A stretch of 64,000 nt of DNA, from the NCBI GenBank assembly GCA_964647595.1, contig CAZYGH010000002.1, positions 3,599 through 67,598 on the forward strand, given 5' to 3'. The DNA comes from an uncultured Verrucomicrobiota bacterium (GTDB lineage: Bacteria > Verrucomicrobiota > Kiritimatiellia > CAIQIC01 > Lenti-01). Made by a program: the position numbers and the translations under genes. A model generated the notes under the pieces. The model worked only from the letters and a program-made list of their open reading frames with translations, ran no database searches and was not told the DNA's origin. How positions within the stretch are numbered: position 1 is the stretch's first letter; the number at the start of each line of letters is the position of its first letter. Positions 10,444-60,541 of the stretch are shown here, in pieces.

Positions 10444-13400
10444 TTATGGGATTGTTGAATCTCGTCGCAACACCACCTCGCAAAGAGGAATTCCCCAGCG
10501 TTTCGCCGCACACGTCTTGCGCCATTCGGGTTCGGCATCTTCCTTCCGCCAACCATAAATGCCCAACACGCGAATCTCGTCCACCCGGTCGGCGGATTGG
10601 ATAAATCGGCGAGTCCCGTCCCTCGATAACAGTGCCAAGACCGTCCCATCCGCTTTCAGCGCAATTCCCGACCGTGTCTCCTCCCAGCCCAACCGATCCC
10701 CCACACGAACCTGACTCATCCCATTGGCAATCCGCTCTACACGATCCACGTCTCCCCGCCCCGCAAAGGACAAATCAAAATCGGCGGGTCCCAACACTCG
10801 ATACCTCTTCAAGGGCAACAGCCCAACGGGCGCAGTCCCCTTTTCCCGAACCACCGCTTCGGCCCCTCTCAATGGCTCCAGAATGGGACAGCGATCCCCG
10901 CTCCAATCCACCACCGCCAACGCACGCTTGGCACGCGTCATGCCCACATACAACAAGCGATGCGCCTCTTCCGAATCCTTGCGCCACAGATTCTGCCAAC
11001 GCCCCGCAACCGCCACACACCCATGCTCCGTGCCCTTGGCGGCGTGAAGAGTCGAAAGCCAAACGCCATCATTTCCCAATCGGCCATCCCGACGAAACCC
11101 GGCACAACTTTCATAAAAATGCTCGATCCACTCTTCTGCAACCGCCTCCCCCTCTGGAAAATCATCCACCATTCCCGCTAGCAAATCCGGCCACCGTCCA
11201 TCGCCACACGCATGGCGAATACGGCTCATCGCTTCTTCCATCATTCCGCGCGAGACCCGTTGCCCGGCCTGAGCCTGAAGTTTTTCCAACAGCATCATGC
11301 ACTCGCGCAACCGCCACAAAGCAGGCAACCCCGTTCCCCGTTGTCCCTCCATCGGCGAAATCCGCACATTCAACGGAATGCGCTCGGCCTCCGCCACCGA
11401 CCGGAACGCATCCAAATCTTCATGGTTCACCCCCAGCACCGCCATATCCTTCCAATCCACTCCCGCCTTACGCCAATTCTTCACCTGCTCCATAAGTCCC
11501 AGTGCCTGCGACTCCAAGCCATCCACCTCCAGCAACCGAACCGGCTCACCAACCGGCTCCTTGCTTCGCCGCCGATCCACATGAATCGGCATTTCGGCTT
11601 TCATCCGACCTCGATTTTCCTCAATCACTCGCCCCGCCGCATCCAAAATGGCCTTGCTCGACCGATAGTTCGACGTCAGGCCGCACATCTCCGCCTCATA
11701 GTCTTTTTCAAAGCGCCGAATGAAGCGTACATCGGCTCCACGAAACCCATAAATACTCTGGTCATCGTCGCCCACCGCCAAAAGGCCAAGCTTGGCATCC
11801 GGATCTTTCAACGTGCGGCCCGCCAACGCCGAAATCAGCTCATATTGCACCTCATCCACATCCTGATATTCATCCACCAAGATAAAACGAAAGCCCGCCA
11901 ACAACCGATCGCGCGCTTCATCCCGCTCACCGGGCTCCATCGCCAAATCTCCCCTCAAAAGACGTATTGCATCTCGAAGCGGCTGCTCAAAATCTAGTTC
12001 ACCCGACACCTTCACTCCCGCCCCCGAACGCCCGGCCATGGCGGAATAGGATGTCCCCGTGAGCCGCATCGCCAACCCGTGATACGTCATCACCGTCACC
12101 CCTCGCGCCGCATCCCCCGCCAACGCACGCAAACGGCGACGCAACTGAACCGCCGCCTCGTGATTGAAACACAGCCCCAAAATGGACTGCGCGGGCACAT
12201 GCTGTATTTTCAACAACCACGCCATCCGGTGCACCACCGTCTGAGTCTTGCCCGAGCCAGGCCCCGCCAACACCAGCCAATTCTGCTCGGGATTGGCCTC
12301 CACTACCCGCCGCTGCTCTTCGTCGCCCAGCTCTTCCACCACCTTCCGATAAGCCTCCGCCGTGGCCGCCCGCTCCAGTTCCTTCTTGCGCCCCGGAAAA
12401 TAGCGCTCACTAAACTGCCGTTTCTCGAGTCGAAAGTAATCGAGCACCAACGACAACGCCGCGGGCATGTTCTGCAATCCGCGCAGGGCATACTCCATCA
12501 TCACGTGAACTTGAAACGTCTTCTCCTCGTAGTACAACCCCAACGGGGCATACTCCTTCACGCCATACCCTCGAGAGGGCTCCGCCTCCACTCGAATCGT
12601 CATAGCCGTACGGAATAGCGCCAATCCACGCTGCAACCGGATGACCTGCAAATCGTGCAACCACAACAGCGCGCGTTCAGCAGCCACAGAGGCATTCGTT
12701 GGACCCGTCTGCAACAGCGATCCCGATTCAATCGCCTCACATAATTGATCCATCGTGAATTCCGCCAGTACATCTTTGCTCCCCGGCGTCTCGTGCGGAA
12801 TCTGCGCCAAGATCGTCTCTAACACGCGCGCCGCCTCGTCCCGACGCCGAGCCGCCAGCTCCACCACCATCGGCATCTCCACATTCAATCGAACACGGTG
12901 ACGCGTGGCGCTTCCCGGACGAATCTCCACCAGCCTCTTCCCCCCTTCCTCCAAACCCGACAACGATTGTGCCATTCTTTCGAAATCCTGCAAACTCGTC
13001 CCGCTTTCGCCTTCGTCTTTCAGCCGCTGATTCAACACGGTCGTATCCAGCACCAGCTCCTCCCCCGCCGAAGCCCCCTGCTCAATCAACAACTCATGAA
13101 ACCGTTTTTCAGCACGTGACAATCGCTCCAGACGCAAATGCGAGGGATCTGAAACCTTATGCCGCACATAAGCCGACATCGCCGTGCATTCCTTCAGCAC
13201 CTTTGCCTTCGACATCGCACGCAACTCACCAAACAACAGCCCATGCAGGCGAGCGGGTTCCCGTGGCCACTCTTGCTTCCGGTTCCACCCCTCCAGCGAG
13301 GGCAACGTCAGCAACCGATCCGCATCAATTCCCGCATCCGCTCGGGCAAACACAAATTCATTCAGAATGTCGCCCCACAATTTCTGACGCTCCGGCGGCT

Positions 13401-18981: not shown

Positions 18982-21900
18982 GTGAACTTATTGCCGGGCG
19001 TTGGATGTGGACTGGCCTTTCTGGTGTATTTCGCAACCGGAATCGTGGCCCAGCCCATCGATTTCTTCTATGTCGGCCACGACGTGGTGGACTACGCTCT
19101 CAACGTGTATGCCGACCCCGCAGGCGGGCCTGCGTACCAGATCGATTGCTGCCCCGATTGCCCCACCAACACCTGGACCAAAGTGGAGATCTACCGCGAC
19201 GACGTGCTCCTCACCGCCTTGCCCGAAGCCAAATTGACCTCCCGGCAGATCCGCCACAACCTCTCGGACGCTACGGTCCTGCCCGATCAGCTCCACGCCT
19301 ACCGGCGGCGAGACTACATCCGCAATCCCTGCACCGGCGGCCAGTGGGTGGAAACCAACCCTTCCACCCTTTCGCAGACCGTCGATACCTCGCGCTGCTC
19401 CGGCGCTCTGTACAACGACGGCACCTTTCCCCGCGACCCCATCCACTGGAGCGGCAACGTGCAGGTCCGCGACGTGCGCGTGGAAATGGGCGTTTTGGAA
19501 GTCCAGCCCGGTTCCGTCGTCACCATCGAGAACGTCCTTTATACCGCCATCTACAATCCGGGGGCGCCGTCCGATGGCAGCCTGCAGGCCATCGCCGCAA
19601 CCTTCCGGGGCGGCAACACCAACGGATTGCCCAGCTTGATGATCCTCGATACCGAAGCCTCCGCTCGCCCGGCCCTCAGCCAATGCACGCTGAACGACGT
19701 CCATCTCTGCGTAAGGAACAATGCCCGCAACGTCGAGTTGATCGACAACGTCTTCACCGGAAATTCCAAGCTGGAAATCAGCGGGCGCAACGGCGTCTGC
19801 AGCGGCACCCGCGGCATCGACCTTCTCGGATTTGGCGGCGCGGACTACCTCGTAGCCAGCAATGTGGCCAACTCCATCGAGGTGGGTTCCTCGAACTGCG
19901 TCGTGCGGGACAACGTCTGCGAGGACTTGATCGTATACTCCGGTGGAAACCAAATCGTGGGCAACCGCGCCATTTCGCTGTCCGTACACGGAAAAGGAAA
20001 TCTCATCCACGGCAACCAGATCGACAGCACCGACAAGCCCAACTACGCAGGCATGAGTATTCGCGGCAGCCACCACGACGTTCGCTCCAACCTCTTTCGC
20101 TCATCGGGCATGAGCCTCGGCGGCGCCAGCAACGTGGTGTCCGGAAACCGCTTCGAAGGGTTCATCCAGCCCGTCGTATGGACCAACCATTCGCTCTTCG
20201 TCAACGGCCGCGGCCATCTCATCTACAACAACTACTTCGGCGGCTGGGGACACAGCGTCGGCGGCTGGGACTACCAAGGCTCCAATCGCTGGTCCATCGA
20301 TAAATCGCCCGGCCCCAATATCGTCGGCGGCCCCTTTCTCGGCGGCAACTACTGGGCGCGCCAAACCGCCGCCGATGCCAACGGCGACGGACTGGGCGAT
20401 ACCCCGCATGTCGTGCCCGGCCAAGCCGGCGCCCAAGACCTGTTGCCCCTCATTGGCCCCGGCGAGCTGGAACTCCACGCCGGCACAGCCAATCCCAATG
20501 GCTCCACCTTCAACCCCGCCGGACAACCCTTCCCCGTCGCCCAAATCTTGCTGCGCGCAGGCGACACCCTCTCCGACGACGCCGTTGTCAATTCCATGAC
20601 CTTCACCTTCCAAGGCGACACCCAGCGCCTCGCGTCCGTCCGCAGCGCCCAGTTGTACTCCGGCACCTCCCACTTCTTGCTGGACTTGACCCTTCTCGCC
20701 GAAGCGCCGTTCTCCGGCAACCGCGTCACATTCGTCCTCAACGAACGCCTTCCTCCGGGTTCCCAGCGCCACTACACCGTCTTCTACGTGTTCCACTACG
20801 TCGACGAATACGCCGCGCCCCCGCCCGCCGCCGCCGCCTCCAAAATCCGCTTCGGTGCCTCCATCCAACCGGAAGACGTGTCCACGCCGTCCGTACTCGT
20901 GACCGGCAGCGCAAAGCCGGGCTGGGTTCGTCCGCTCCACCTTCGCTATCTCACCGCCTTCATGCCGGGTGCCCCCGCCTCCGTGGGCTCGGCCATCGAA
21001 TCCTCCGCCGAAGTGCTCTTCGCCTGGTCGCTCTACGGCGACGTCTGCGCCAACCCCAATCTCCGCATCCTGCGCGACGTGGGTTCCGCCGAACAGCCCT
21101 GGACCCTGTGGATCAAGGACCGCGACGCCGTCCACGCCCTGTCCTCCTTCGCCAACCGGCCCACGTTCCGCACCTTCGATTGCGCAGGCGCCTCCACCGA
21201 AAACCTCGCCTTGCCCACCGTCGAAGCGCTGGATTCCTACGTCGACGACGATGGGCGGCTGTTCTGGGCGCCCGGCTTGGCCTTCGACGACCCGTATGCC
21301 AACGCCGATTTCCTCTTCGCGGGCGAAGTCGATCTAACCGTCGCCGCCACGCGCGGAGATTACGCCGGCTTCCTGCGCGACGTCGCCACCCCGCTGCGCA
21401 ACGCATTCGGCGGAGCCGACAACGTCCTCGTCTCCAGCTACTCGGCCGAAGGCGACGGCTACCTCGCCACCCTCCGCATCCTCACCCGCCAAAGCGCCTC
21501 GCGCGTCCGGGCCGCCCTCCTGCCGGGCGCCAGCGTCCTCGACATGCGCGGCCGCACCCTCTCTGTCCGCTACGCCCATTCCCACGGCAGCGACGCCATG
21601 CGCTCGCCCGGCGCGTTCCTCGAAGTGCAACCCCAACTCGACTTCGGCCACGTCACCGTCGACCAAACCGCTACGCGCCGCCTGCTCCTCCGCGAACGCA
21701 ACGGACAAGAGCCCCTGCACGTTTCCGCCATCCTCGCCTCCGGCCCCTTCCGCTCCGACTGGAGCGGAACCATCCCCGCCGGTGGCCAAACCAACGTCCC
21801 CGTGTCCTTTTCTCCCCTCTCCCCCGACGCCCAGATCGGATTTCTCCGCGTCGTTTCCGACGCCGCCTCCGGACCCTGCGAAACGCTCTGCTCCGGACAA

Positions 21901-22269
21901 GGCACCGCGCTGGAAATCGACGAAGCCTACCGCGACGTCCACGGACTCCCCCTCGATGGCTCCGGCGACTACGAAGACTCCGACGACGATGGGTTCAGCA
22001 ACTGGGAAGAATGGCTCTGCGGCACCGACCCCAACGACCCCGCCTCCCATCTGCTCGTCTCCCCCTCATCTGAAGGCAGTCTCCTGACCTGGCCCAGCCA
22101 AGCCGGACGCCGCTACAACGTCTATCGATCAACAGACCTGACCCGCGCCGTTCCCTTCCTCTTCTTGGAATCCATCGTCGGCCAAGCCGGAGAATCATCC
22201 TTCGAAGATAGCGACCCCATGCCCGCCCCCCTGCGCATCTATCGCGTGGAAATCCAGCCAGACGAGTAA
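18982..22269 (+). CDS. Large secreted right-handed parallel beta-helix repeat protein (1095 aa) with C-terminal TSP3-like calcium-binding motif
   Basis: N-terminal signal/TM. Many NxxG/beta-helix repeats (NVxxxNxxxxNG...). DSDDDGFSNWEEWLCGTDPNDPAS motif near C-terminus. The antisense ORFs in this span are high-GC artefacts. Confidence 0.7.
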   Translation: MNLLPGVGCGLAFLVYFATGIVAQPIDFFYVGHDVVDYALNVYADPAGGPAYQIDCCPDCPTNTWTKVEIYRDDVLLTALPEAKLTSRQIRHNLSDATVLPDQLHAYRRRDYIRNPCTGGQWVETNPSTLSQTVDTSRCSGALYNDGTFPRDPIHWSGNVQVRDVRVEMGVLEVQPGSVVTIENVLYTAIYNPGAPSDGSLQAIAATFRGGNTNGLPSLMILDTEASARPALSQCTLNDVHLCVRNNARNVELIDNVFTGNSKLEISGRNGVCSGTRGIDLLGFGGADYLVASNVANSIEVGSSNCVVRDNVCEDLIVYSGGNQIVGNRAISLSVHGKGNLIHGNQIDSTDKPNYAGMSIRGSHHDVRSNLFRSSGMSLGGASNVVSGNRFEGFIQPVVWTNHSLFVNGRGHLIYNNYFGGWGHSVGGWDYQGSNRWSIDKSPGPNIVGGPFLGGNYWARQTAADANGDGLGDTPHVVPGQAGAQDLLPLIGPGELELHAGTANPNGSTFNPAGQPFPVAQILLRAGDTLSDDAVVNSMTFTFQGDTQRLASVRSAQLYSGTSHFLLDLTLLAEAPFSGNRVTFVLNERLPPGSQRHYTVFYVFHYVDEYAAPPPAAAASKIRFGASIQPEDVSTPSVLVTGSAKPGWVRPLHLRYLTAFMPGAPASVGSAIESSAEVLFAWSLYGDVCANPNLRILRDVGSAEQPWTLWIKDRDAVHALSSFANRPTFRTFDCAGASTENLALPTVEALDSYVDDDGRLFWAPGLAFDDPYANADFLFAGEVDLTVAATRGDYAGFLRDVATPLRNAFGGADNVLVSSYSAEGDGYLATLRILTRQSASRVRAALLPGASVLDMRGRTLSVRYAHSHGSDAMRSPGAFLEVQPQLDFGHVTVDQTATRRLLLRERNGQEPLHVSAILASGPFRSDWSGTIPAGGQTNVPVSFSPLSPDAQIGFLRVVSDAASGPCETLCSGQGTALEIDEAYRDVHGLPLDGSGDYEDSDDDGFSNWEEWLCGTDPNDPASHLLVSPSSEGSLLTWPSQAGRRYNVYRSTDLTRAVPFLFLESIVGQAGESSFEDSDPMPAPLRIYRVEIQPDE

Positions 22270-24083: not shown

Positions 24084-24153
24084 GGTTCATTTCCTAGAGA
24101 TGGCACTATTTATTGTGATTTTAATTCACATTATAATTTAATCGACACTTTTC

Positions 24154-26067
24154 ATGAACTCAGTTGAACTTATTGTCATCGGGGCTGGCCATGCGGGCTG
24201 TGAGGCGGCCCTAGCAGCCGCACGAATGGGTGTTCGGACCGCGCTTGTCACGATGGACCTACGCGCTGTTGCGAGAATGTCCTGCAACCCTTCCATCGGT
24301 GGGATCGCCAAATCTCATATGGTGTTCGAACTGGATGCCCTTGGTGGCGAAATGGCCTTGAATACCGACTGCACGGGGATTCAGTTTCGGGTTCTCAATA
24401 TGCGCAAGGGTCCGGCTGTACGAGCCAACCGGGCACAATGCGACAAGCCCGCCTATTCCGCCCGCATGAGCGCCGTCCTCCAGACCCAAGACCATCTGAC
24501 CTTGATCGAGGATCAAATCGAGTCCATTGCCGTGCAACAGGATCAGATTCGCGGCGTTTGGGGGCAAAAATCAGGCTACCTCGAGGCTCCAGCCGTCATT
24601 TTGACGGCTGGGACCTTCTTGAGGGGAAAGATCTTCATTGGAAAACAAGTCGTGAGTGGTGGGCGGCTTCAGGAGCCCTCCGAGGAAAACCTGAGCCTTC
24701 AATTGAATCAGATGGGATTCCGAATGGAGCGACTCAAAACCGGCACCCCGCCCCGTTTGCACAAGGACAGTCTGGATTATTCTAAAATGTCCATCCAACC
24801 CGGCGAAACCCCACCTCCGTTCTTTGGATGGCAGTGCCGAGCCTCGGCAGGCATGTTCCACGTGGAACAGTCTGCTTCCGACCCTTTCCCACCGCCTGCT
24901 TCCGTTGTTCCACGTGGAACATCCATTCCACTACCTCCCTTTGCACCGTGGATTCCAGGAAGTCAGCAACTCCCGTGCTGGCTGACCCATACGAATGAGA
25001 AGACCATTCAGATCATTTCCGACCACTTGGATGATTCCGCCTTGTACGGCGGTCTAATCGAAGGCACCGGGGCTCGATACTGCCCCTCCATTGAAGACAA
25101 AGTAGTGAAGTTCTCCAGCCACAGCAATCACCATGTCTTTGTGGAGCCCGAGGGGAGGGGGGTGCTGGAAATGTATCCCAATGGAACCTCCAACAGCCTA
25201 CCGCTGGACGTTCAACTCGATATGATCCATTCGATTGCGGGCCTCGAAAAGGCGGAGTTTTTGGCACCGGCCTATGCCATTGAATATGATTTCTTTGATC
25301 CCACTCAACTCTTCCACACCTTGGAAACCAAACGGATCCAAGGACTCTATTTTGCTGGCCAAGTGAATGGAACCACGGGATACGAAGAAGCAGCAGCGCA
25401 GGGCTTTATGGCGGGAGTCAATGCCGCCCTGCGCCTCCGCAACCAAGAGCCGCTGACTCTCAAGCGCCATGAAGCCTATATCGGGGTCATGATCGATGAC
25501 CTCGTGACCAAAGGCACCAACGAGCCCTATCGAATGTTTACCTCCCGAGCCGAACACCGCCTTCTGTTACGGCAAGACAACGCCCCCTTTCGGTTGTCAT
25601 CTCAAGCGAAACGTCTGGGAATCGTCCCCGTCCATCGGCGACAAGAAATTCAGAACATGGAACGAGAAATCGCCCAAGAAATTGACCGCCTGAACCAAAC
25701 CTACCGCGATGGTTCCTCCTTGGCCCAATGGCTGAAACGTCCAGAGGTCCAGTATGCAACCTTGCCCGGTCATCGGGATGACCTCTCAGCTGAAGTTGTC
25801 GAACAGATTGAATTTTCCCTCAAGTATGAAGGCTATATTGAACGGGAGTGGCGACAGATTGAAAAATCAGAACAAGTCGCCAAGCAACGCATTCCAGAAG
25901 ACTTCAATTATCAGACCCTCTCCGCTCTCCGCTACGAATCACGAGAAAAACTATCCGCGATTCGTCCGCGCGATTTAGGGCAAGCTTCGCGCATTTCCGG
26001 TGTTACCCCAGCGGATATTTCTATCCTCTCCGTGTGGCTGAAAAGGACAACTCCGACTCCTCGTTGA
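24154..26067 (+). CDS. mnmG: tRNA uridine 5-carboxymethylaminomethyl modification enzyme MnmG (GidA)
   Basis: FAD motif [13 protein letters not shown], full-length 637 aa, adjacent to mnmE. Confidence 0.9.
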
Positions 26068-26145
26068 TTTATAATATATTGTATCCTATTCTAGCAGATG
26101 TTGTTATGTACATTTAACAAAATAGGTTCACCACGTCCGTGCCCT

Positions 26146-26853
26146 CTATTGCTTCAGGATCTCAATCGCCGCCTGAGTCACAGGTCCACCCGCCTCCGCC
26201 CAACGGGTGGGAAAAGAATCCGGGTGGGCGAGGCAATTGTTCAGCTTGGCCATTTGTACTTCGGACGGGAAATGAGAAGCCGCGAGAGAGGCGGCGGACC
26301 TCCATCTCGGGTCCGCATCCGGCAACCGGGCAGCCGCTTCTAAAGCCCTTCCCGCTAGATATTGGGTGAATCGAATCCCGGTTCCGTCCGAATCAAAACG
26401 ACCATCCGGATGTTGCAAACGAATAAGATGCTCCATTCCCGCTCGAATCGATGACACCTGATGGTCCTTCCATCCAGAAGACGGAGAACGAATGAGCGCA
26501 ATCAAAGCCAGTGCGGTGACTCCCGTGTCATAGCGTGTGTGCAAGGAAGAAGGACCGGCCGACCAGGCACCATCTTCGCGCTGAGCCGACATCAGTATTT
26601 CAACCGGGGTGGGGGATTCCGCCCTTCGAACAGGTTGCAACAGCCACAAGCCAGCGCCCAGCAGAAGAGCCAGTCCTGCCACACCCCGCAGAAATGGGAA
26701 TGCCAACATCCTCTGAGACCCGGTCGGAGTCTGGATGCGTTGTCGAACGCGATCGGTAAAATCTGTGGAACCTGTCGGCCTGTTCTGATCGCGCAACAGG
26801 GATATCAGGCTCGAAAAGCGTGGATCTTTCAGCGGATCGCTAGGGGTTTTCAT
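26146..26853 (-). CDS. Putative anti-sigma factor with periplasmic prenyltransferase/squalene-oxidase-like repeats
   Basis: Overlaps the ECF sigma gene. Cytoplasmic N-terminus, single TM (VAGLALLLGAGLWLL), QREDGAW and HPDGRF repeat motifs. Confidence 0.45.
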   Translation of the reverse strand: MKTPSDPLKDPRFSSLISLLRDQNRPTGSTDFTDRVRQRIQTPTGSQRMLAFPFLRGVAGLALLLGAGLWLLQPVRRAESPTPVEILMSAQREDGAWSAGPSSLHTRYDTGVTALALIALIRSPSSGWKDHQVSSIRAGMEHLIRLQHPDGRFDSDGTGIRFTQYLAGRALEAAARLPDADPRWRSAASLAASHFPSEVQMAKLNNCLAHPDSFPTRWAEAGGPVTQAAIEILKQ

Positions 26854-27397
26854 CGAACATTTCCTGTAGTGTTGACAACGCATTGAACACGCGTGATTTT
26901 ACGGTACCAATTGGTATAGAAAGGATTACAGATATTTCTTCGTAGGAGAGACCCTGATGAATAGAGAGAATCAACACCTCTCGCAACTTGGGGGAGAGTT
27001 TCTCGAGCGCGGCCTGAACATCGATTTTCTTTTGAACCGCGCCGATGCCACCATCGGTGGATACCGGCATTTCTTCCCGATAGCGGTCGGAAAACAGTCG
27101 AAATCGAACGTGTCGACGAACCGAATCGACCCACACATGTCGAGCCAAGGTATAGAGAAAAGTCGTAAACTTGGCCGATGGTTTGTATTTTTTCCGATAG
27201 TTCCATAGCCGAATGAATGTCTCCTGCGCAAGGTCGTCGCCAGACATAGAAGCGCCCATGCGGGCAAAATAGTTCAATATGGGTCGTTGATGGCGAGAAA
27301 CCAGCATACCAAAGGCTTCCTCGTTATCATTTTTGACCTGAACCATGAGCGCAAGGTCATCCGTTTCGGGCTGGATGGAATCGGACATAACTGGCAT
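26840..27397 (-). CDS. ECF-subfamily RNA polymerase sigma-70 factor
   Basis: Region 2 (ETFIRLWNY...FTTFLYTLARH) and region 4 (LSYEEISVILSIPIGTVKSR) motifs. Confidence 0.8.
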   Translation of the reverse strand: MPVMSDSIQPETDDLALMVQVKNDNEEAFGMLVSRHQRPILNYFARMGASMSGDDLAQETFIRLWNYRKKYKPSAKFTTFLYTLARHVWVDSVRRHVRFRLFSDRYREEMPVSTDGGIGAVQKKIDVQAALEKLSPKLREVLILSIHQGLSYEEISVILSIPIGTVKSRVFNALSTLQEMFDENP

Positions 27398-27527
27398 TGT
27401 TGAATGGTTCGCTCAGAAAAGAAAAGCCTTTTGAGCGCTATGTAATTAATCGCAAACCGGATGAACCATTTCGTCTGTTGCATCGTTTATAGACGAAACA
27501 CATGAAAGTTCAAAAGAGGCACATGAA

Positions 27528-28658
27528 ATGAGCAAATGGATAACAGGTTGTTTGGTGGGATGGCTATGGACGGGCGTGACAGGAGGCGCCGTCTTGCCTC
27601 CTGAATTGGAAGGGGAAGCCCGAGCCGCCCTGAATCGAGGAGCCGCATGGCTGGCCGCACAACAGCAACCGGCTGGCTTTTGGGCCATTGAAGACTCGCC
27701 GGCCCTGACGGGTCTCTCGATGTGGGCCCTTCAACAAGCCGATCCTGCGGCTCATCGTTCCGCGATCGATCGCGCCATGGTTTTCATTTTGACCAGCGTG
27801 CAAGAAGATGGCTCGATCTGGCGCAAGCCGGCCCTTCAGCGCAAGGGTGGGGGACTGGCCAATTACAACACAGCCGTCTGCATGACCGCCCTTCACGCGT
27901 TGAACCGCCCTGAACTGCTTTCCGTGGTTCAACAAGCGCGCACCTACCTGTCAAAAATGCAATATCTGGACCCGAGCGTCTATCGAGGCGGAATGGGCTA
28001 CGATGCCGACCAAGGAAGGCCCTACACCGATCTCTCGAATTCCTACATGGCCTATGAAGCCATGCGCCTCACGCAGGATGTGGAAGATTTGCGCGCGGCG
28101 GGCGAACCCAAAGCCGATCTGGATTGGAAGGCGGCTCAGGAATTTTTGTCGCAGGTGCAAAATCTGGCGACGGTCAACACCAACTATTGGATTAGCGAAA
28201 GTCTGGACGACCAAGGCGGCTTTGCCTATTCCCCCGGCGCTGGCGCATCGACCACCAACGCAGAGGGCAAGGTGAGCCTGCGTTCTTACGGGAGTATGAC
28301 CTATGCCGGCCTGCTCGCGCTGATCTACTCCCAAGTGGATGCACAAGATGAGCGCGTGCAAGCCGCCAAAGACTGGGCCACCCGCCATTGGTCGCTGGAT
28401 GAAAACCCCGGCATGGAGCAGGAGGGGATCTACTATTTCTTTAATGTGCTCACCAAATCCCTTGCCGCTGTGGGCGATGAAACCCTGACACTTCCCGATG
28501 GCCTCACCGTTTCCTGGCGCGAAGAAGTGGTGCGCAAACTCATCGCTCTTCAGAAGCCAGAGGGTTTTTGGGTGAATGAAAACAATCGCTGGTGGGAAGC
28601 CGATCCCAATCTAGTGACCGCCTACACCCTGTTGGCCTTGTCTGCGGCCCTTCAATAA
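27528..28658 (+). CDS. Secreted prenyltransferase/squalene-oxidase repeat (terpenoid-cyclase-fold) protein
   Basis: Signal peptide. Repeats with QxxDG(S/G)(W/F) motifs (QQPAGFW, QEDGSIW, DQGGFAYS, KPEGFW). Confidence 0.65.
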   Translation: MSKWITGCLVGWLWTGVTGGAVLPPELEGEARAALNRGAAWLAAQQQPAGFWAIEDSPALTGLSMWALQQADPAAHRSAIDRAMVFILTSVQEDGSIWRKPALQRKGGGLANYNTAVCMTALHALNRPELLSVVQQARTYLSKMQYLDPSVYRGGMGYDADQGRPYTDLSNSYMAYEAMRLTQDVEDLRAAGEPKADLDWKAAQEFLSQVQNLATVNTNYWISESLDDQGGFAYSPGAGASTTNAEGKVSLRSYGSMTYAGLLALIYSQVDAQDERVQAAKDWATRHWSLDENPGMEQEGIYYFFNVLTKSLAAVGDETLTLPDGLTVSWREEVVRKLIALQKPEGFWVNENNRWWEADPNLVTAYTLLALSAALQ

Positions 28659-28689
28659 GGAATCGCCCGGCGCACTTACTTGCGGCTTC

Positions 28690-28895
28690 ACGCCGCCAAC
28701 GCGGTTTTCCACAGTGTGGAAACATTTCTTCCATTGTGTGGAAAGCGCGCGTCCCGCGCACGGATTGCCGAAGGCAAGTTCCGCTTCGGAACGAGGGCCA
28801 AACGTGGCCCGAAGCCCAATCGCGAAAAAATCTTCCATTCTATGGAAAACTTTTGCAACGGCGGCTATCACAGTTAATTAATTGTGATAGTCGTT
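28690..28895. promoter_or_regulatory. Cluster of palindromes in a convergent intergenic region: TTTCCACAGTGTGGAAA, TTCCATtgTGTGGAA, TTCCATtctATGGAA, ctatcacagTTAATTAAttgtgatag, plus two short hairpins
   Basis: Read from sequence between 28659 and 28900. Lies between the 3' ends of two convergent genes. Confidence 0.4.
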
Positions 28896-28900
28896 CGGCT

Positions 28901-29722
28901 TTATCGTCCGAATCGATCAAGGAAGGCTTCGAGTTCTGCGTTGCCAGCCCCGCCGGGAGTAAACCAGGAGCTGTCTTCGTGCTTGCCCGACAAGAGGACA
29001 AATGTTTTCGGAGATGCAGCGGCAGCATGCAAAATACGGCCACTTTGAAAAGGAACCACTTCATCCGTTGTGCTATGGGCAAACAGTTTGGGCATCCCAT
29101 TCAAGGTGGCCACTTTGGCGGCCGAATCGTACGAAACAGAAAGCAGGCGATCGAGGGGAAGGGAAGGGTACCACCGTTTGGCCATGTCGGCAGCGGAGGA
29201 AAAAGCGCCTTCCACAATCAGGGCGGCCGCCGGACGGTCTGTGGCCAATTGAATTGCTACGGCCGATCCCATCGACAAGCCGTAGACTACGATAGGCAAC
29301 TTGCCACTCATGGCAGCGGCAGCATCATACGCCGCACGGGCATCATCATAAAAACCGGCCTCGGATGGGCGGCCGCCGCTTCGACCATACCCTCTGTAAT
29401 CCCATAGTAGAACATTGAATCTTCTCTTAAAAAAATGGGGCGCCAAATAGGCAATGTCGCCGATATTTCCAGAATTTCCGTGGCAATAGACAATGGTTCC
29501 TCGTGGGCGATTGGCGGGAACCCACCAGCCATTCAGCGAGGTTCCATCGGACGCAACAAATTGGACATCCTGATAGCGAAGCTGAAACTGGGCGGGGGTG
29601 GTCGAAATTTCTGCTGTGGGGTGATAAAGCGCGGCAAATTCAAATCGGCGCAGATATACCCAGCCAAAGGCTATGGCCATCACCAGAATGCATACGATGG
29701 AGAGAAAGATTTTTTTCATCAC
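28901..29722 (-). CDS. Alpha/beta-hydrolase (S9/BEM46-like), membrane-anchored
   Basis: N-terminal TM, HGNSGNIGD, nucleophile elbow GLSMGSA. Confidence 0.75.
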   Translation of the reverse strand: MMKKIFLSIVCILVMAIAFGWVYLRRFEFAALYHPTAEISTTPAQFQLRYQDVQFVASDGTSLNGWWVPANRPRGTIVYCHGNSGNIGDIAYLAPHFFKRRFNVLLWDYRGYGRSGGRPSEAGFYDDARAAYDAAAAMSGKLPIVVYGLSMGSAVAIQLATDRPAAALIVEGAFSSAADMAKRWYPSLPLDRLLSVSYDSAAKVATLNGMPKLFAHSTTDEVVPFQSGRILHAAAASPKTFVLLSGKHEDSSWFTPGGAGNAELEAFLDRFGR

Positions 29723-30852
29723 CGTGTAGTTTCTAGTGTTTTAGGGAAGGTGGCGAGTACTTTGTGCCCCTTGCGTGTCACAACCACGGTGTCTTCGATG
29801 CGAACGCCACCGAGCCCAGGATAGTATAGCCCTGGTTCCACGGTGACAACATTGCCCTCCGAAAGACAACCGGGCTCGTTGCGTAAACCGGGCGACTCAT
29901 GAATATCAAGGCCCACGCCATGACCCACACTGTGGATGAATCCGCATTCCTTGCCGGCGGGAGAAAGACGCGTCTCGTGCCCAGCAGCGCGGAAGAAGTC
30001 TTCCACCGCATATTGAACGGCACTGGATTCCACACCGGGACGCACCATGGACAAAGCGAGTTTTTGCGCAGCAAGCACATCGCGATGCAACCGACGAACG
30101 GCATCGGTGGCACGACCCCGGACGACGGTGCGCGTGATATCGCCCCAGTAGCCGGTTATCTTGTCACGCGGAAAAATATCGATGACGATGGGCACGCCCG
30201 CCCGAAGCGGACCGGAGCCGACATCATGAGGTCGCGCGCCTTGAGGCCCAATGGCCACAATGGTTCCCTCGGCGGTACAATGCCGTTCCAACAGAGTGCG
30301 CTCAATCAAATCCTTCAGAAATTCCGAGGTCAGCGTCTTTCCGTCCACCTTCAATAGACCCGACGAAGAAATCGATGCCTCCCGAATGCAGGTTGTGGCC
30401 GCCCGCATCGCTGCAACAGCCGAACGCTGCGATTGGGTAATGAATCTCACTTCCCGGGCCGTCTTCACCGCACGGTTTGGAAAGGCGGAGTGGTGGGTCA
30501 CCTCCACCGTCACGCCTTGTTCTTCCAAGGAACGGGCAATACCCACAGGAAAAAACGGACCCACATCAACGGAAGAAAACCCAAGTGTTTTCAGAAGAAC
30601 AATCAGTTGGTCGCTGATGGATCGCCGCTTGGGAATTGCATCTCTAAAAAGCTGGGCTGGGGTGTGAAGAATAGCAGAAGGGCAGGTTTTCTTCGCACGG
30701 GAGGCTTCCAGCGCAGAAACGAGCAAATGGAGGCGGGAATCGACCACCAACAGGCAAAAAGGATCGGTCGCTACAAGGCCCGTGGCATAGCGCACATCAT
30801 TTTCTTCAAGGCCAGTGGCTATCAAAAGGCGGGGGACTGTTGATTTCTTCAT
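29719..30852 (-). CDS. Xaa-Pro aminopeptidase (peptidase M24)
   Basis: HSVGHGVGLDIHESP metal-binding motif, pita-bread fold signature. The ORF-track start at 30924 is a TTG. ATG at 30852 (MKKST...) is preferred. Confidence 0.8.
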   Translation of the reverse strand: MKKSTVPRLLIATGLEENDVRYATGLVATDPFCLLVVDSRLHLLVSALEASRAKKTCPSAILHTPAQLFRDAIPKRRSISDQLIVLLKTLGFSSVDVGPFFPVGIARSLEEQGVTVEVTHHSAFPNRAVKTAREVRFITQSQRSAVAAMRAATTCIREASISSSGLLKVDGKTLTSEFLKDLIERTLLERHCTAEGTIVAIGPQGARPHDVGSGPLRAGVPIVIDIFPRDKITGYWGDITRTVVRGRATDAVRRLHRDVLAAQKLALSMVRPGVESSAVQYAVEDFFRAAGHETRLSPAGKECGFIHSVGHGVGLDIHESPGLRNEPGCLSEGNVVTVEPGLYYPGLGGVRIEDTVVVTRKGHKVLATFPKTLETTR

Positions 30853-31139
30853 GTTTTTTGCGAATTTCGGCTCCGGGTGACTTGTTAATGAGCGAATTCT
30901 CAAGGGGTTAAGACCGCTTGACAATCACAAAATTCCTTGTCAAGGGGGGGGAGGACGGAAAAATTTAAAATCGAATAAGACACATCATATGGGATAAAGA
31001 GGGATTGAGACATCCATATGTGGTAGGATTCAAGATGCACGAGAGGAAAGTCTCACATGAACCTTGTCCTAGAGGAAGGGGACCCCTATAGTCGCAGACG
31101 TTTTAGGAGCCGAGAATCAAAAGACAGTTGTTAATAAAC

Positions 31140-31148
31140 TGTGGATAA
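31140..31148. promoter_or_regulatory. Consensus DnaA box (TGTGGATAA = TTATCCACA) upstream of dnaA
   Basis: Exact 9-mer in the 354-bp region upstream of dnaA. Weaker variants nearby (TGGGATAAA, TGTGGTAGG). Confidence 0.6.
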
Positions 31149-31278
31149 GTGGTTCAAAGGCCTGTCCTGCCGAGTCCAAATGGAGACGCGGGGAGGGCGG
31201 ATTTCCGGTGATATTTAAATTGTGCAGGCCGATTGGAAGTGAGAAACTGTCCGACCGAGTCAGGAAGAGGAATTTGTA

Positions 31279-32661
31279 GTGGAAACGACCCAGGCAAAAC
31301 AGATTTGGACAAAGGCATGCGAGTTCCTCTCGTCTGCCATTTCTGCGGACATCTATAACCGATGGATTGGCGTGATCGAAGCCATCGGCGACGACATGCC
31401 CGGACAGTTGACCCTAACGGTGCCGAACGGATTCTATCAGGACTGGCTTGAAGAGCATTACCTGTCCATGATCCACAAAGCCATTGAAGCATCGGGCGCA
31501 GAAAATGTGACGACTAGTTTTGTGGTGGACGGAGCGCGCCCTCCCGTCGAATCGCTTTCCACTCCACCACCACCGAGAGAAGAGAAAGAAACCGGCTCCA
31601 AGCGCCGTGTTTTGAAGTCGTGTAATGTGGGCGGCGTACTCAATCCACGCCACACGTTCGACAACTTTGTGGTGGGGCCCTCCAATAGTTTTGCCCATGC
31701 CGCTGCCTTGGCGGTGGTGGAGGCGCCAGGACGCGCTTACAACCCTTTGTTCATCCATGGCGGCACGGGACTCGGCAAGACTCATCTGATCCAAGCCATG
31801 GGCCAGGAAGTGCTCAAGCGGGGGAAGGGGACCGTCTGCTACGTCTCCTGCGAATCCTTCACAAATGAATACATTCAAGCTCTGAAGCAAAATGAAATTT
31901 CCGCCTTCCGAAAGAAATACCGCACAATCGACCTATTGCTGATTGATGACATCCATTTCCTCGCCGGCAAAGAAAGCACGCAGGAGGAATTCTTCCATAC
32001 ATTTAATACCCTGTATGAAAACCAAAAGCAGATCGTATTGACCAGCGATCGGCCCGTCAGCGAAATTGGGAATCTTCAAAAGCGTCTGGTTTCCCGATTT
32101 GAGTGGGGCCTAGGCACTGAGATGGAAATGGCCGACCTCGAAACCCGAGTGGCCATCCTTCGCAGACAGCGCGACCAATTGAACATTCATCTTCCGGACG
32201 ACACCCTGTTCTTTATTGCCGAACACGTGCGCTCCAACATTCGGAAGCTGGAAGGCTCGCTCCTTCGGGCCGCCTCCTATGCTTCCTTAACCCGCAAGCC
32301 CCTAACCACGGAAGCGCTCGAATATCTCCTGCGCGATACCATCGAACAGGAAAAACAGACCGCATTGACGATCGAAGGCATCCAGCGGACCGTCGCGGAA
32401 TACTACGACATCCGGTTGGGCGACATGACCAGCAAGCAACGGCCACAAAATATCGCGTTCCCCCGGCAGGTCGCCATGTATCTCTGCCGCGAGATGACCG
32501 ACCAATCCCTGCCCGCCATCGGAAATGGATTTGGCCGAAACCACGCCACCGTTCTTCATGCCCATCGCTCGGTGGGCGAAAAGATGAAGACCGACACCGG
32601 GCTTCGACAAACCATTCTTTCTCTTCAGCAACGGTTGGGCGGAGTGTCCGCCCCCGCGTGA
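31279..32661 (+). CDS. dnaA: Chromosomal replication initiator protein DnaA
   Basis: AAA+ Walker [11 protein letters not shown], sensor motifs, C-terminal DNA-binding domain (NHATVLHA). GTG start with aggaagagg RBS. Confidence 0.92.
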
Positions 32662-32726
32662 GATGATTGGCCTCGCACTGGATTCTGCCAAGGGATTTTC
32701 ACAGGAAGCTCAGACTCAAGCGAGAC

Positions 32727-32735
32727 TGTGGATAA
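32727..32735. promoter_or_regulatory. Consensus DnaA box (TGTGGATAA) 66 nt downstream of dnaA stop
   Basis: Exact match. Followed by the TGTGGACAA, GTCCACACA and ATCCACAGA variants inside the repeat. Confidence 0.6.
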
Positions 32736-32777
32736 CCCTGTGGGAATCGCTGGATTTCCTGTTCATAAACCATAATC

Positions 32778-32952
32778 CGTGTGGACAATCCCAAGTTGTC
32801 ACCTTTCCCCACAGGCAGGAGGGGGCCGTTCTCGACAGGTCCACACACGATAAAAGGCCCGTCTGGATTGATCGTTCAAGGATATGCACACGATCCACAG
32901 AACCTATTAATAATGCTTATTTAAACTTCTATATAAAAAAGAATAGAAGTAG
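32778..32952. repeat. Direct repeat copy 1 (~175 bp): DnaA-box-like motifs plus 45-bp AT-rich DUE-like tail
   Basis: ~90% identical to 33850..34023. The last ~107 bp are identical in both copies. Confidence 0.85.
32904..32950. promoter_or_regulatory. AT-rich putative DNA unwinding element (cctattaataatgcttatttaaacttctatataaaaaagaatagaag)
   Basis: ~80% AT in a ~60% GC genome, immediately 3' of the DnaA-box cluster. Confidence 0.5.
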
Positions 32953-32973
32953 AAGGCCATCTTCCGTATTTTC

Positions 32974-33189
32974 ATGCCGATGAAATCCATGGCCAAAATT
33001 GAAATACTCCGAAAGATGAAATCCAGTGCGGCATGGAAACGTGCGGAAGCCTATGGCATCGATATGTCCCTGTTGGAATCAAATCTTCGGCATACCGTTG
33101 CGGAACGTCTGCGTCAACACGATGCCGCCTTGCAAACCCTTCTCGCTTTGCGCGAAGCCGTGAAAAAGAAACATGCCACAACCGTCTGA
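32974..33189 (+). CDS. Small all-helical protein (71 aa), putative partner or antitoxin of the downstream nucleotidyltransferase
   Basis: ATG start. 17-nt overlap with the downstream gene. Charged helical sequence. Confidence 0.45.
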   Translation: MPMKSMAKIEILRKMKSSAAWKRAEAYGIDMSLLESNLRHTVAERLRQHDAALQTLLALREAVKKKHATTV

Positions 33190-33658
33190 CATTTTAAGAC
33201 TATTGAGTACACACGGTGTGGATTTCGTCGTGGTCGGCGGATATGCCGTCGTTGCCCACGGTGGAACCATGGTTACTCAAGATGTCGATGTCTGCTGCTG
33301 CTTTTCTCAAGAAAATCTCCTGCGCGTTCAGGATGCGCTCAAAGACGTCCATCCTGTTCATCGCATGACCCCAAAGCGGCTGCCGCTGCAGTTGACGGCG
33401 GATCATGGCCAAGGCCTTAAAAACATCTACCTAGACACAGATATCGGCCAGCTCGATTGCCTGAGCACGATTCTCGGAGTCGGCGATTTTCAGGAAGTGA
33501 AAAAACGAAGTTTTATGGTCAACATGAACGGCTACGAACTGCGACTGCTGGAATTGGATGCCCTCATCGCAGCAAAAAAAGCTATGACCCGACCTCGCGA
33601 CAGAGAAGCTGTCATTCAACTCGAGGCGTTGCGGGACGGCGGAAAAGAAGGGGAATAA
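33173..33658 (+). CDS. Pol-beta-superfamily minimal nucleotidyltransferase (AbiEii/MNT-like, DUF6036-like)
   Basis: VVGGYAVVAHGGTMVTQDVDVCC matches the hG[GS]x9-13Dh[DE]h NTase motif. 161 aa. Confidence 0.6.
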   Translation: MPQPSDILRLLSTHGVDFVVVGGYAVVAHGGTMVTQDVDVCCCFSQENLLRVQDALKDVHPVHRMTPKRLPLQLTADHGQGLKNIYLDTDIGQLDCLSTILGVGDFQEVKKRSFMVNMNGYELRLLELDALIAAKKAMTRPRDREAVIQLEALRDGGKEGE

Positions 33659-33849
33659 CATGCCTGACCTCGCACAATTCCAACTTTTAAAATGCCTTTG
33701 TCCTAAAGGCATCTATTAGAAGAAGAGGGAACATCCTCCATATGTTCATGGCGCGACTACCCTCCCTCAAGGAATTGGAAAATTTCTGCCCAAAAAGATG
33801 AATTTGAAACTAACTACAACAATATTAGATTATAGGCCTGACCCCATTT

Positions 33850-34023
33850 CGTGTGGACAATCCCCAGTGATCCCCTTTCCCCACAGGCAGGAGGGGGCCG
33901 TTCTCGACAGGTCCACACACGAAAAATGCCGACCTGGATTGATCGTTCAAGGATATGCACACGATCCACAGAACCTATTAATAATGCTTATTTAAACTTC
34001 TATATAAAAAAGAATAGAAGTAG
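33850..34023. repeat. Direct repeat copy 2 (174 bp) with its own AT-rich DUE-like tail (33975..34021)
   Basis: Aligned by eye to copy 1. Ends 42 nt before the wzx ATG. Confidence 0.85.
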
Positions 34024-34065
34024 TAGGTGGGCCTTCGTTCCTTTTTTTAATGATAGTTCAATCTC

Positions 34066-35424
34066 ATGACGTATTTCCAGCGTATCTTCCGTAGCTTAAG
34101 TTCGACACAGCAAAAAGTCGCATCCAATGTCTATTGGGCTGTTGTGGGGCATATGGCTCGGATTCTCTCCGAGCTACTGGTCGGCATACTCGTGGCACGC
34201 TATCTCGGTCCAGAACAATACGGACTGATGAGCTATGTCATCAGCTTTGTTTCCATTTTTTCTATTTTGGCTACTTTTGGTTTAGACCATATCGAGGTGC
34301 GCGAACTGGCGGGGGACAAACTGCCGAAAGAAGCCGTGCTTGGGACGGCCTTCCGGCTACGACTGATTTTCGCGCTCCTCACGATGGGGATCGTCCTTCT
34401 CACGGTTCAGGCCTTTGAAGTCGACGCCTCCGTCCGATTGCTGATTCTTGTGTATTCGTTTTCTATTATTCTGAACAGCTTCTATGTCATCCGGAACTAC
34501 TTCACGGCGATCGTGAGAAACAAATTTGTGGTCAAGGCCGAGATCACAAGAATTGTGTTCGGTGCAATTATCAAGATTCTCCTGATGCTGTTGCGAGCTC
34601 CCCTTCTGTGGTTTGTAGTTGCGGTGACATTTGATTTCCTCCTGCTTGCGACTGGATATGTGTATGCGTACCGTTCACAGGTTGGCTCGCTCCGCGAATG
34701 GCGGTTTGATAGGAGCATCGCCCACTTTCTCATTCGCCAGTCCTTCCCGTTGCTACTCTCTGGTGCGGCGGTCATTGTTTACCAGCGCATTGATCAGATC
34801 ATGCTCCGTAACATGCTGAACAATGCGTCGGCAGGCTACTTTTCGACTGCGGATAAATTCGCAAATCTTGTCATGTTTATTCCCTTGATTCTCACTCAAA
34901 CGATCAGTCCTTTGCTTGTGAAGACGAGAGCAGATAACCCAGAGCTGTATCGTAAGCGCAGACAACAATTTGTGGGTACGGTCTTGTGGGTAACCATCGG
35001 ACTATCCATTGTGATCAGCATCTTCTCTCACGCACTGATTGCGATGACATTCGGGAAGCAGTTCTTGAGTGCTGTGCCTGTTTTGAAGGTTCTTTCATTC
35101 CGGGCAGTCGGAATGGCTCTGTCTGCCGCCTCTGGACAACTGATCATCATCGAGGATATTCAAAAGTGGGCGTACATAAGAAATGTGATTGGATGTTGTG
35201 TCTGCGTCATCATCAATCTCTTGGCTATTCCGCGCTATGGGATTGTTGGAGCGGCATGGGCCTCTGTAATTACTGTTCTTGCGAGTGGTTTTTTTGCGAA
35301 CTTTGTAATTCCAAAGTACCGGGCGATCGCATGGATTCAATTATCAAGCCTGCTTATCGGTTGGCGTGACCTATTTGATTCCTGTATCAACGTATTCAGA
35401 AATATGAGGGAAAAGAGAACATGA
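34066..35424 (+). CDS. wzx: Polysaccharide biosynthesis protein / O-unit flippase Wzx
   Basis: ~12 TM segments, PST-family N-terminus. First gene of the polysaccharide locus. Confidence 0.7.
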   Translation: MTYFQRIFRSLSSTQQKVASNVYWAVVGHMARILSELLVGILVARYLGPEQYGLMSYVISFVSIFSILATFGLDHIEVRELAGDKLPKEAVLGTAFRLRLIFALLTMGIVLLTVQAFEVDASVRLLILVYSFSIILNSFYVIRNYFTAIVRNKFVVKAEITRIVFGAIIKILLMLLRAPLLWFVVAVTFDFLLLATGYVYAYRSQVGSLREWRFDRSIAHFLIRQSFPLLLSGAAVIVYQRIDQIMLRNMLNNASAGYFSTADKFANLVMFIPLILTQTISPLLVKTRADNPELYRKRRQQFVGTVLWVTIGLSIVISIFSHALIAMTFGKQFLSAVPVLKVLSFRAVGMALSAASGQLIIIEDIQKWAYIRNVIGCCVCVIINLLAIPRYGIVGAAWASVITVLASGFFANFVIPKYRAIAWIQLSSLLIGWRDLFDSCINVFRNMREKRT

Positions 35425-59184: not shown

Positions 59185-59293
59185 GTTGCGATGTGAGAAG
59201 TCGATTCTGTTCTTGAAGTTCACCCTCCTGACAGGACATACTCAACAGAGTGAATTATGGAACGTCAATTAAGAGAACCAGCTAGGTGGCGGA

Positions 59294-60467: not shown

Positions 60468-60541
60468 TGGTTGCCCGACTAGGATTTGAACCTAGACAAA
60501 CAGCTCCAGAGGCTGCTGTGCTACCGTTACACCATCGGGCA
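60468..60541 (-). tRNA. tRNA-Gln (anticodon CTG)
   Basis: Reverse complement gives acceptor TGCCCGA/TCGGGCA, T-arm CTAGGTTCAAATCCTAG, anticodon loop CTCTGGA, encoded CCA. G at position 37 is atypical, so the isotype call is moderately confident. Confidence 0.7.

Follow-up and report, generated by a model that had tools for sequence, protein, structure and literature searches.

A candidate DnaA-dependent chromosomal origin with a duplicated unwinding module and a displaced dnaN in an uncultured Kiritimatiellia-like bacterium

A 64-kb stretch of DNA from an uncultured Verrucomicrobiota bacterium (64,000 nucleotides of contig CAZYGH010000002.1, GenBank assembly GCA_964647595.1; hereafter the window) carries dnaA and, directly downstream of it, a dense cluster of DnaA boxes. 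Judging from its sequence, this region very probably holds the DnaA-dependent chromosomal origin of replication (oriC) of a Kiritimatiellia-like bacterium of the Planctomycetes-Verrucomicrobia-Chlamydiae (PVC) group, an origin of the ancestral dnaA-oriC-dnaN type at which initiation would occur at 32.9-34.0 kb. A preliminary description of the window had already placed oriC beside dnaA, and this call is borne out by the statistics of the boxes, by a spacer conserved in about 45 loci, by synteny and by the published rules for a basal unwinding system (BUS). The location was correct, while the duplication of the origin, the displacement of dnaN and a third, relic copy of the origin had been overlooked. 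The oriC is ordinary in kind; it is the local rearrangement that is unusual.

DnaA boxes and the unwinding module

The complete copy of oriC, here called copy A (32721-32956, plus strand), is the densest box cluster of the window and matches the profile of the spacer found in relatives. Read on the plus strand, its left boxes are TGTGGATAA (32727), TGTTCATAA (32760) and TGTGGACAA (32780), and these are followed by the oppositely oriented boxes TTCCCCACA (32805), TTCTCGACA (32829) and AGGTCCACA (32837) and by a AAGGCCCGTC motif at 32854. Its unwinding module (32882-32949, plus strand) consists of a box pair, a spacer, triplets and an AT-rich DNA-unwinding element (DUE). The abutting boxes ATATGCACA and CGATCCACA occupy 32882-32899, the spacer is GAAC, and the six triplets CTA TTA ATA ATG CTT ATT (32904-32921) form the beginning of the DUE (32904-32949).

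Exact TTATCCACA boxes, which had been claimed for both sides of dnaA, are present at 31140-31148 and 32727-32735, both on the minus strand, 131 nt before the start and 66 nt past the stop of the gene. These two are the only occurrences in 64 kb, compared with 0.26 expected by shuffling, and 3 of 100 shuffles reach two. The variant boxes TGTGGACAA, GTCCACACA and ATCCACAGA were likewise located, at 32780, 32839 and 32893; all three recur, at 33852, 33911 and 33964, respectively, which the preliminary description did not mention. The AT-rich stretch of about 45 bp that it reported corresponds to 32904-32949 (83% AT). This run and its twin at 33975-34020 are the least stable 46-mers of the whole 64 kb (83-85% AT). 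When boxes with at most two mismatches were counted in 240-bp intervals, the maximum of seven was found at copy A and the runner-up, with five, at a second copy of the origin (copy B). None of 300 first-order Markov simulations reached seven boxes per 240 bp, the simulated maximum being at most six. In addition, four of the five TGTGGAHAA sites fall inside 2.7 kb, with 1.7 such sites expected over 64 kb.

The origin of Escherichia coli adjoins mnmG (gidA), a gene that also lies in the window, to the left of dnaA. Conceivably, the boxes around dnaA are transcriptional operators only, serving dnaA autoregulation and the promoter of the downstream operon, with the true origin beside mnmG or outside the window. 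Besides the established position of the E. coli origin, this alternative can draw on two AT-rich 46-mers near mnmG (24107-24152 and 26066-26111), which rank third and fourth for instability in the window, and on the ancestral box pair, which sits between TTGATG and CATACT, a possible dnaN promoter. The best 240-bp interval at 24-26 kb (from 23900), however, holds four boxes, against a simulation mean of 3.9 and the seven of copy A, and the dnaA-dnaN spacer with its inverted boxes, triplets and AT-rich run is conserved in about 45 loci and conforms to the BUS rules. We regard an origin elsewhere as very improbable; the skew data that bear on it are given below.

The dnaA-dnaN spacer of related genomes

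A search with DnaA yielded about 25 genome and about 25 metagenome loci, all from metagenome-assembled genomes of uncultured Kiritimatiellia/Verrucomicrobiota, whose DnaA is 76-93% identical to that of the window. The genome, metagenome and protein collections yielded no genome whose DnaA is more than 93% identical. In every relative with enough flanking sequence (at least 20), the gene order is mnmG, a small gene, a gene for an extracytoplasmic function (ECF) sigma factor, a prenyltransferase-like gene, a hydrolase gene, an M24 peptidase gene and dnaA; a spacer of some 300 bp separates dnaA from dnaN, beyond which lie a ptsP-like gene and a gene for a membrane protein. The flanks of the window agree with this order on both sides.

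The spacer of the relatives contains, in order, two or three boxes TGTGGA(C/A)AA, weaker boxes of opposite orientation (TTGGGCACA, TTTTCGACA), a near-invariant GATTCTTTTCTTGATGTCCACACTGTCCACAGGACATACTGATAAGACT, 25-40 nt of AT-rich sequence, and the ribosome-binding site (RBS) and start codon of dnaN. A profile was built from the dnaA-dnaN spacers of 23 relatives, with the window excluded. Each of the roughly 45 related loci contains exactly one copy, straight after dnaA (140-260 bits), and the window contains three. Copy A is matched at 32721-32953 with 114 bits (hmm positions 61-293) and is orthologous to the single origin of two close relatives, L165 and L163.

Agreement with the basal unwinding system

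A basal unwinding system was reportedly described by Richardson et al. in 2016 and 2019 for incC of Bacillus subtilis and oriC2 of Firmicutes. As formulated since (Pelliciari et al., 2021; PMC8287927), its rules comprise a DnaA box with at most two mismatches, to which a tandem second box (at most four mismatches) may be added within 3 bp, then a spacer of up to 16 bp and, on the strand read 3'->5' from the box outwards, three or more NAN triplets. Copies A and B both conform: ATATGCACA (two mismatches) abuts CGATCCACA (two mismatches), and the distance to the six triplets that follow is 13 bp for the first box and 4 bp (GAAC) for the second. On the complement the triplets read 3'-GAT AAT TAT TAC GAA TAA-5', the first of them being the canonical 3'-GAT-5'. 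Their strand and orientation agree with the oriC2 trio of Clostridioides difficile, written 5'-CACCTACTACTATTACTACTATGA-3' in the dnaA-to-dnaN direction (PMC7561715). With boxes scored against the E. coli consensus, 21 of the 32 distinct relatives conform to the rules and the remainder are off by one mismatch. The invariant segment of the relatives consists of the abutting boxes ATGTCCACA and CTGTCCACA, GGAC, the triplets ATA CTG ATA and the AT-rich run.

From this layout and the published work on BUS origins, a course of initiation can be proposed. DnaA would bind the three left boxes (TGTGGAHAA on the plus strand) and the oppositely oriented boxes, the left boxes completing the orisome. A DnaA oligomer nucleated on the abutting box pair would then extend along the triplet strand and open the AT-rich run, and forks would depart both ways, which is consistent with the negative and positive arms of GC skew. 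The main firing site would most likely be copy A, the one with a full set of left boxes and the conserved AAGGCCCGTC motif; this copy is also the orthologue of the single origin in the closest relatives.

GC skew and gene orientation

GC skew in the window is -0.24 at 1-23 kb, about 0 at 26-35 kb, +0.10 at 34-45 kb, +0.22 at 45-59 kb and +0.13 at 59.3-64 kb. The base counts from which a strand-bias switch had first been described (G13/C22 at 20041-20100 and G24/C9 at 55201-55260) are exact, and the sign does change from negative to positive; the minimum, however, is a 9-kb plateau at 25-35 kb and not a point. The absolute minimum of the cumulative skew is at 26721, and a second minimum near 34000 is higher by only 13 counts. 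The former favours an origin near mnmG, but the gap between 26.7 and 34 kb amounts merely to these 13 counts. A near-zero-skew zone of about 9 kb (26000-35000) lies between the -0.24 and +0.22 arms, without a sharp flip at the origin.

Genes had also been described as co-oriented with the forks. This is so on the right arm, where all protein genes are on the plus strand and the only minus-strand gene to the right of dnaA is one for tRNA-Gln(CTG) (60468-60541), located between dnaN and the ptsP-like gene. The left arm is mixed, with about 30% of coding bases on the plus strand, in a NosD-like gene (18982-22269), mnmE, mnmG and 27528-28658. The left-arm plus-strand genes keep a negative skew (-0.21 for 18982-22269 and -0.17 for mnmE) and, because they do, the strand bias appears to track replication and not transcription. 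The NosD-like gene, which encodes 1095 aa, is situated in a patch of 62-66% GC in surroundings of 53-58%; it lies head-on to the inferred fork and has negative skew.

The flip might instead be a compositional effect of a low-GC insert combined with gene orientation, and have nothing to do with replication. The low-GC segment at 34-45 kb indeed begins right at the proposed origin, and a transcription-coupled bias on the right arm, with its protein genes all on the plus strand, would run in the same direction. Yet the strongest skews (-0.24 and +0.22) lie outside the low-GC part, the native DNA at 59.3-64 kb has +0.13, and the plus-strand genes of the left arm are negative. Such an artefact had been named beforehand as a possible objection; the flip persists in native DNA on both sides and is therefore not an effect of the insert. 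Taken as a whole, this explanation is extremely improbable. The origin call is a sound frame for the window: forks would depart at about 33-34 kb, with all that lies to the right co-oriented with replication.

Copies A and B and the cassette between them

Copy B (33851-34026, plus strand) is a left-truncated oriC. Its first box is TGTGGACAA at 33852, its box pair lies at 33953-33970, its triplets at 33975-33992 and its DUE at 33975-34020; the profile matches it with 61 bits (positions 119-295). It has neither the exact TGTGGATAA box nor the second, degenerate left box, and its AAGGCCCGTC motif is mutated. Copies A and B form a direct repeat of about 190 bp (32769-32956 and 33841-34027), of which the left part is 90% and the right part 95% identical. 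The differences amount to nine substitutions and one indel, and a core of about 90 nt (32832-32922) is 100% identical, with at most one mismatch out to 32956. Each copy carries the BUS pair, triplets and DUE, and the two unwinding modules are separated by 1,072 bp (1.07 kb). Where the copies differ, copy A agrees with the outgroup L165, which marks A as the orthologous copy and B as the derived one. Copy B can be read as a younger, left-truncated duplicate to which DnaA could still bind, and it may mainly be the promoter region of the polysaccharide operon that follows. The duplication is seen only in the genome of the window, since the closest relatives (DnaA 93% identical) have a single origin.

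Logan unitigs of SRR7760390 are 100% identical to the window at 28798-32831 and 32923-33903 and end at the shared core; by this identity both junction sequences are confirmed. The assembler path from copy A through the cassette to copy B is probably read-supported, because the shared core is short enough for single reads to span. Alternatively, the chromosome has a single origin, composed of the left part of A, the core and the right flank of B leading into the flippase gene, and the 1,072-bp unit is a circle or a population variant that was mis-threaded. The unitigs do break precisely at the shared core, so that the graph permits both traversals; moreover, the closest relatives have one origin without the cassette, and direct repeats of about 190 bp would permit excision by homologous recombination. 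Against this, the core of about 90 nt can be spanned by 150-nt reads or large k-mers, the assembly chose the order A-cassette-B, and the nine substitutions and one indel are each linked to their own flank. A mis-threaded single origin is quite improbable on this balance.

It is unlikely, if somewhat less so, that both modules are competent, giving two DnaA-dependent initiation sites 1.07 kb apart, or that the 1,072-bp unit, which combines an origin segment (box pair, triplets and DUE) with the toxin-antitoxin-like cassette, exists or once existed as a small circle. In that case it would replicate by means of its captured oriC module and would have entered the chromosomal origin by Campbell-type homologous recombination. 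This model of entry fits the copies: to the left, A resembles the outgroup while B diverges, and in the core the two are identical.

Between copies A and B lie two overlapping small open reading frames (ORFs) on the plus strand (32974-33658). The first, from 32974 or 32989 to 33189, would encode 66-71 aa without a family match, and the second (33173-33658) a predicted nucleotidyltransferase of 161 aa (Pfam DUF6036/DUF2204). The cassette proteins have no match in NCBIfam, PADLOC or PDB. With DUF6036/DUF2204 as the sole matches, none is to a recognised toxin or antitoxin family, and the overlap of the two ORFs resembles a toxin-antitoxin system in arrangement only. Homologues of the cassette, 75-81% identical in nucleotide sequence, are found in other settings, where no origin copy accompanies them; copies of the origin were looked for beside the homologues in L166-L169 and none were found.

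Two further observations concern the surroundings of the cassette. A sequence tt(t)ataggNctgacccc recurs 3' of the nucleotidyltransferase gene in a number of unrelated contigs (L166, L167 and L168, twice in L167); in the window it lies at 33835-33850, directly abutting the start of copy B. It may be the end mark of a mobile cassette. In L167 (109-1485), a FitA-like ribbon-helix-helix and PIN pair of the VapBC type lies directly 5' of the homologous pair of small ORF and nucleotidyltransferase gene, and both pairs precede a polysaccharide flippase locus, which suggests that small cassettes gather at the edge of polysaccharide loci.

The polysaccharide locus, dnaN and the origin relic

In the window, a polysaccharide locus of the exopolysaccharide (EPS) or capsule type, recognised by Pfam matches, occupies about 25 kb between oriC and dnaN (34066-59184, plus strand). 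Its variable part (about 34-45 kb), with a low GC content of 46-49%, encodes a flippase, a nitroreductase, a pyruvyl transferase, WbsX, GT1/GT4 glycosyltransferases and a methyltransferase. The conserved part (about 44-59 kb) encodes a sugar transferase, DegT, CapD, Wza, Wzc, CpsB, Wzy_C, an FGE-sulfatase and a 115-aa ORF. Synteny places the bounds of the insertion at 32957-59200, and no such locus is found between dnaA and dnaN in at least 20 relatives.

The dnaN gene for the beta clamp (59294-60388, plus strand; Pfam DNA_pol3_beta domains 1-3), ancestrally the right neighbour of oriC, now lies about 26.3 kb past the AT-rich run, whereas dnaN of the relatives starts 15-20 nt beyond it. The gene is 85-97% identical to dnaN of the relatives. 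Directly upstream of it, at 59200-59293 (plus strand), is a relic of the right half of the ancestral oriC (GATTCTGTTCTTGAAGTTCACCCTCCTGACAGGACATACT...), matched by the profile at 59200-59296 (25 bits, E 4e-6, positions 206-310). Both box cores are mutated, with five mismatches each, only two triplets are left and the AT content is 68%, so that the relic falls outside the BUS rules. It retains TTGAAG-N18-CATACT, which could be the dnaN promoter, and the dnaN RBS.

The closest counterparts of this arrangement were obtained from several contigs. L160, found via the FGE-sulfatase protein, has dnaN and PtsP that are 96.7% and 97.6% identical to those of the window and the same order of Wza, Wzc, CpsB, Wzy_C, FGE-sulfatase, 115-aa ORF, relic and dnaN. 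Its relic has the identical left breakpoint and is less decayed (47 bits, with CTCCACA retained). The 32.9-kb contig P0123 has an FGE-sulfatase homologue that is 78% identical, in the same gene order. In L165, from the same sample as L160, and in L163/L164, from another sample, DnaA is 93% identical to that of the window, and dnaA is followed by a single origin some 320 bp long (113 and 97 bits), beyond which lie polysaccharide genes that differ among L165, L163/L164 and the window. Neither the cassette nor an origin duplication is present in L165 or L163/L164. In GCA_050176815.1 (L049), which has the ancestral order dnaA-oriC-dnaN, a homologous EPS export cluster lies on another contig.

A history in two steps would account for these arrangements. 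In an older event within a narrow lineage, the polysaccharide locus would have been placed between the origin and dnaN, with duplication of the right half of the origin. Later, and in the genome of the window only, about 190 bp of the origin would have been duplicated around the 0.9-kb two-ORF nucleotidyltransferase cassette. Import of the right half of A and B from the lineage of L010/L012, which has a similar DUE, was also considered and is unsupported, as the identities to all relatives are about 72-78%.

Evidence against the proposed account and the fate of the two halves

Several observations weigh against the account given here. The absolute minimum of the cumulative skew within these 64 kb sits about 6 kb to the left of the proposed unwinding site. 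In the 5-kb flanks of dnaA in 22 relatives there is no consistent skew flip (mean +0.05 on the left and -0.02 on the right). The order A-cassette-B comes from the assembly; taken by themselves, the unitigs would also fit one chromosomal origin accompanied by a 1,072-bp circle. Sites that differ between A and B show no significant avoidance of conserved columns (Mann-Whitney p = 0.12), which leaves selection on copy B unsupported by this comparison. Finally, when the profile is restricted to the right half, A and B reach 23-25 bits, the relic 32, the relic of L160 49 and the relatives 76-88. The single origins of L165 and L163 score 14-25 bits with the same profile. By these low scores, no right half in the clade diverges more than the dnaA-proximal one.

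It was considered whether the relic is simply more decayed than A and B. This was rejected, as its right-half score is higher and it has the clade majority in 31 of 40 highly conserved columns, compared with 29 of 40 for copy A. By these sequence comparisons, the dnaN-proximal copy is apparently nearer the ancestral sequence overall, apart from its box cores and AT richness, and the dnaA-proximal copy appears to have kept the boxes, triplets and AT-rich run and to have diverged elsewhere. This pattern suggests that two overlapping functions were partitioned after the duplication.

The dnaA gene and its upstream region

The dnaA gene (31279-32661, plus strand) has a GTG start and encodes 460 aa with the Pfam domains DnaA_N, Bac_DnaA and Bac_DnaA_C. 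A consensus scan gave a putative dnaA promoter, TTGTCC-N17-TATAGT (31064-31092, plus strand), and both hexamer positions are conserved in an alignment of 25 relatives. Downstream of it lies a tandem DnaA-box pair, TGTTAATAA-ac-TGTGGATAA (31129-31148, plus strand), the second box of which is the exact consensus. In all aligned relatives this pair is kept, as cTGTGAACAAgcTGTGGATAAg, about 135 nt ahead of the GTG start. These are the only boxes noted upstream of dnaA; they lie 3' of the putative promoter and have no adjoining AT-rich run. A bipartite origin, which would need box clusters to either side of dnaA, would have just this pair as its upstream part. Their position and context make dnaA autoregulation or an accessory cluster a more likely role for them than that of an unwinding site. 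A BUS-like pattern on the minus strand at this pair (31148, four triplets) was dismissed as chance, since the flank is not AT-rich, and the relatives are GC-rich there and do not conserve the triplets.

The sequence AAGGCCYGTC occurs both beside the upstream box pair (31157-31166) and within copy A (32854-32863), with three matches in the window against 0.4 expected. AGGCCCGTC is found at both equivalent positions in many relatives and is mutated to AATGCCGACC in copy B. The motif could be the site of a second origin-binding factor. Further upstream, 5' of the putative dnaA promoter, is an inverted repeat CATATGG...CCATATG (30985-31030) with arms about 25 nt apart. Nearly every aligned relative has a repeat in the corresponding position, its arms varying in sequence from species to species, and it may be a regulator site or a hairpin. 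An Rfam scan of 30800-34200 by E-value returned only a sub-threshold match to AsdA (22.7 bits, compared with a gathering score of 52).

Other features of the window

The convergent intergenic region at 28659-28900 contains three copies of an 18-nt palindrome (TTTTCCACAGTGTGGAAA, TCTTCCATTGTGTGGAAA and TCTTCCATTCTATGGAAA; 28705-28848) whose halves are DnaA-box-like. The pattern TTCCA-N5-TGGAA is present in one to four copies in the same intergenic region of L002, L006, L007, L019 and L028, and not in all relatives. A near-perfect palindrome of 32 nt (CGGCTATCACAGTTAA|TTAATTGTGATAGTCG, 28862-28893) immediately precedes the stop codon of the hydrolase gene on the minus strand. On the far left, a single minus-strand ORF of 1720 aa (10444-15606) joins DEAD/Helicase_C and UvrD-helicase domains.

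Significance and comparison with known systems

No description of the origin of this lineage was found, although the literature was not searched specifically for one. With approximately 45 loci, a BUS-type origin can be compared clearly across a PVC lineage, which would extend the model past the cultured phyla in which it was tested. The rearrangement amounts to a natural experiment, in which one element containing both origin and dnaN-proximal signals was duplicated and the copies kept different features. In addition, a strain-variable polysaccharide locus abuts the DUE, and the full unwinding module is duplicated in one genome. If both copies fire, the chromosome would be a rare natural case with two origins, alongside that of Pseudomonas aeruginosa.

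The closest likeness is to the BUS origins of Firmicutes, which also lie directly after dnaA and, as was ancestrally the case here, right before dnaN, and which share the tandem box pair, a short G/C spacer, at least three A-centred triplets and an AT-rich DUE (PMC8287927; PMC7561715). Unlike these, the origin described here belongs to a PVC lineage with the clade box consensus TTGTCCACA / TGTCCACA, and its paired boxes abut with zero gap. There are two boxes upstream of dnaA and not a large incAB-like cluster. In the genome of the window the module is duplicated and dnaN is no longer adjacent.

According to Weigel (2025; bioRxiv 10.1101/2025.08.05.668638), a bacterial chromosome with two functional origins is known from P. 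aeruginosa only, and dual origins are predicted for Halomonadaceae. The window resembles these in having two modules of boxes and DUE on one chromosome, of which one is seemingly downgraded, as proposed for oriC1 of the oriC1/oriC2 pair of P. aeruginosa. It differs in that its copies are young paralogues 1.07 kb apart and 90-100% identical, and in that copy B is without the left boxes.

In Mycobacterium tuberculosis, IS6110 insertions are said to occur in the dnaA-dnaN region. The oriC of E. coli is separate from dnaA (PMC8287927). As in these cases, the dnaA-oriC-dnaN unit of the window has been broken with viability retained. The interruption here, unlike those, consists of a 25-kb polysaccharide locus whose variable part abuts the DUE, and the break came with a duplication of the right half of the origin, the two halves of which appear to keep different features.

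Capsule and O-antigen loci combine conserved export genes with a hypervariable glycosyltransferase region that is swapped between strains. The locus of the window is similarly built, with a conserved CapD-Wza-Wzc-CpsB-Wzy_C block and a low-GC block that varies among relatives with 93% identical DnaA. Unlike in capsule and O-antigen loci, the left anchor of the variable block would here be the replication origin.

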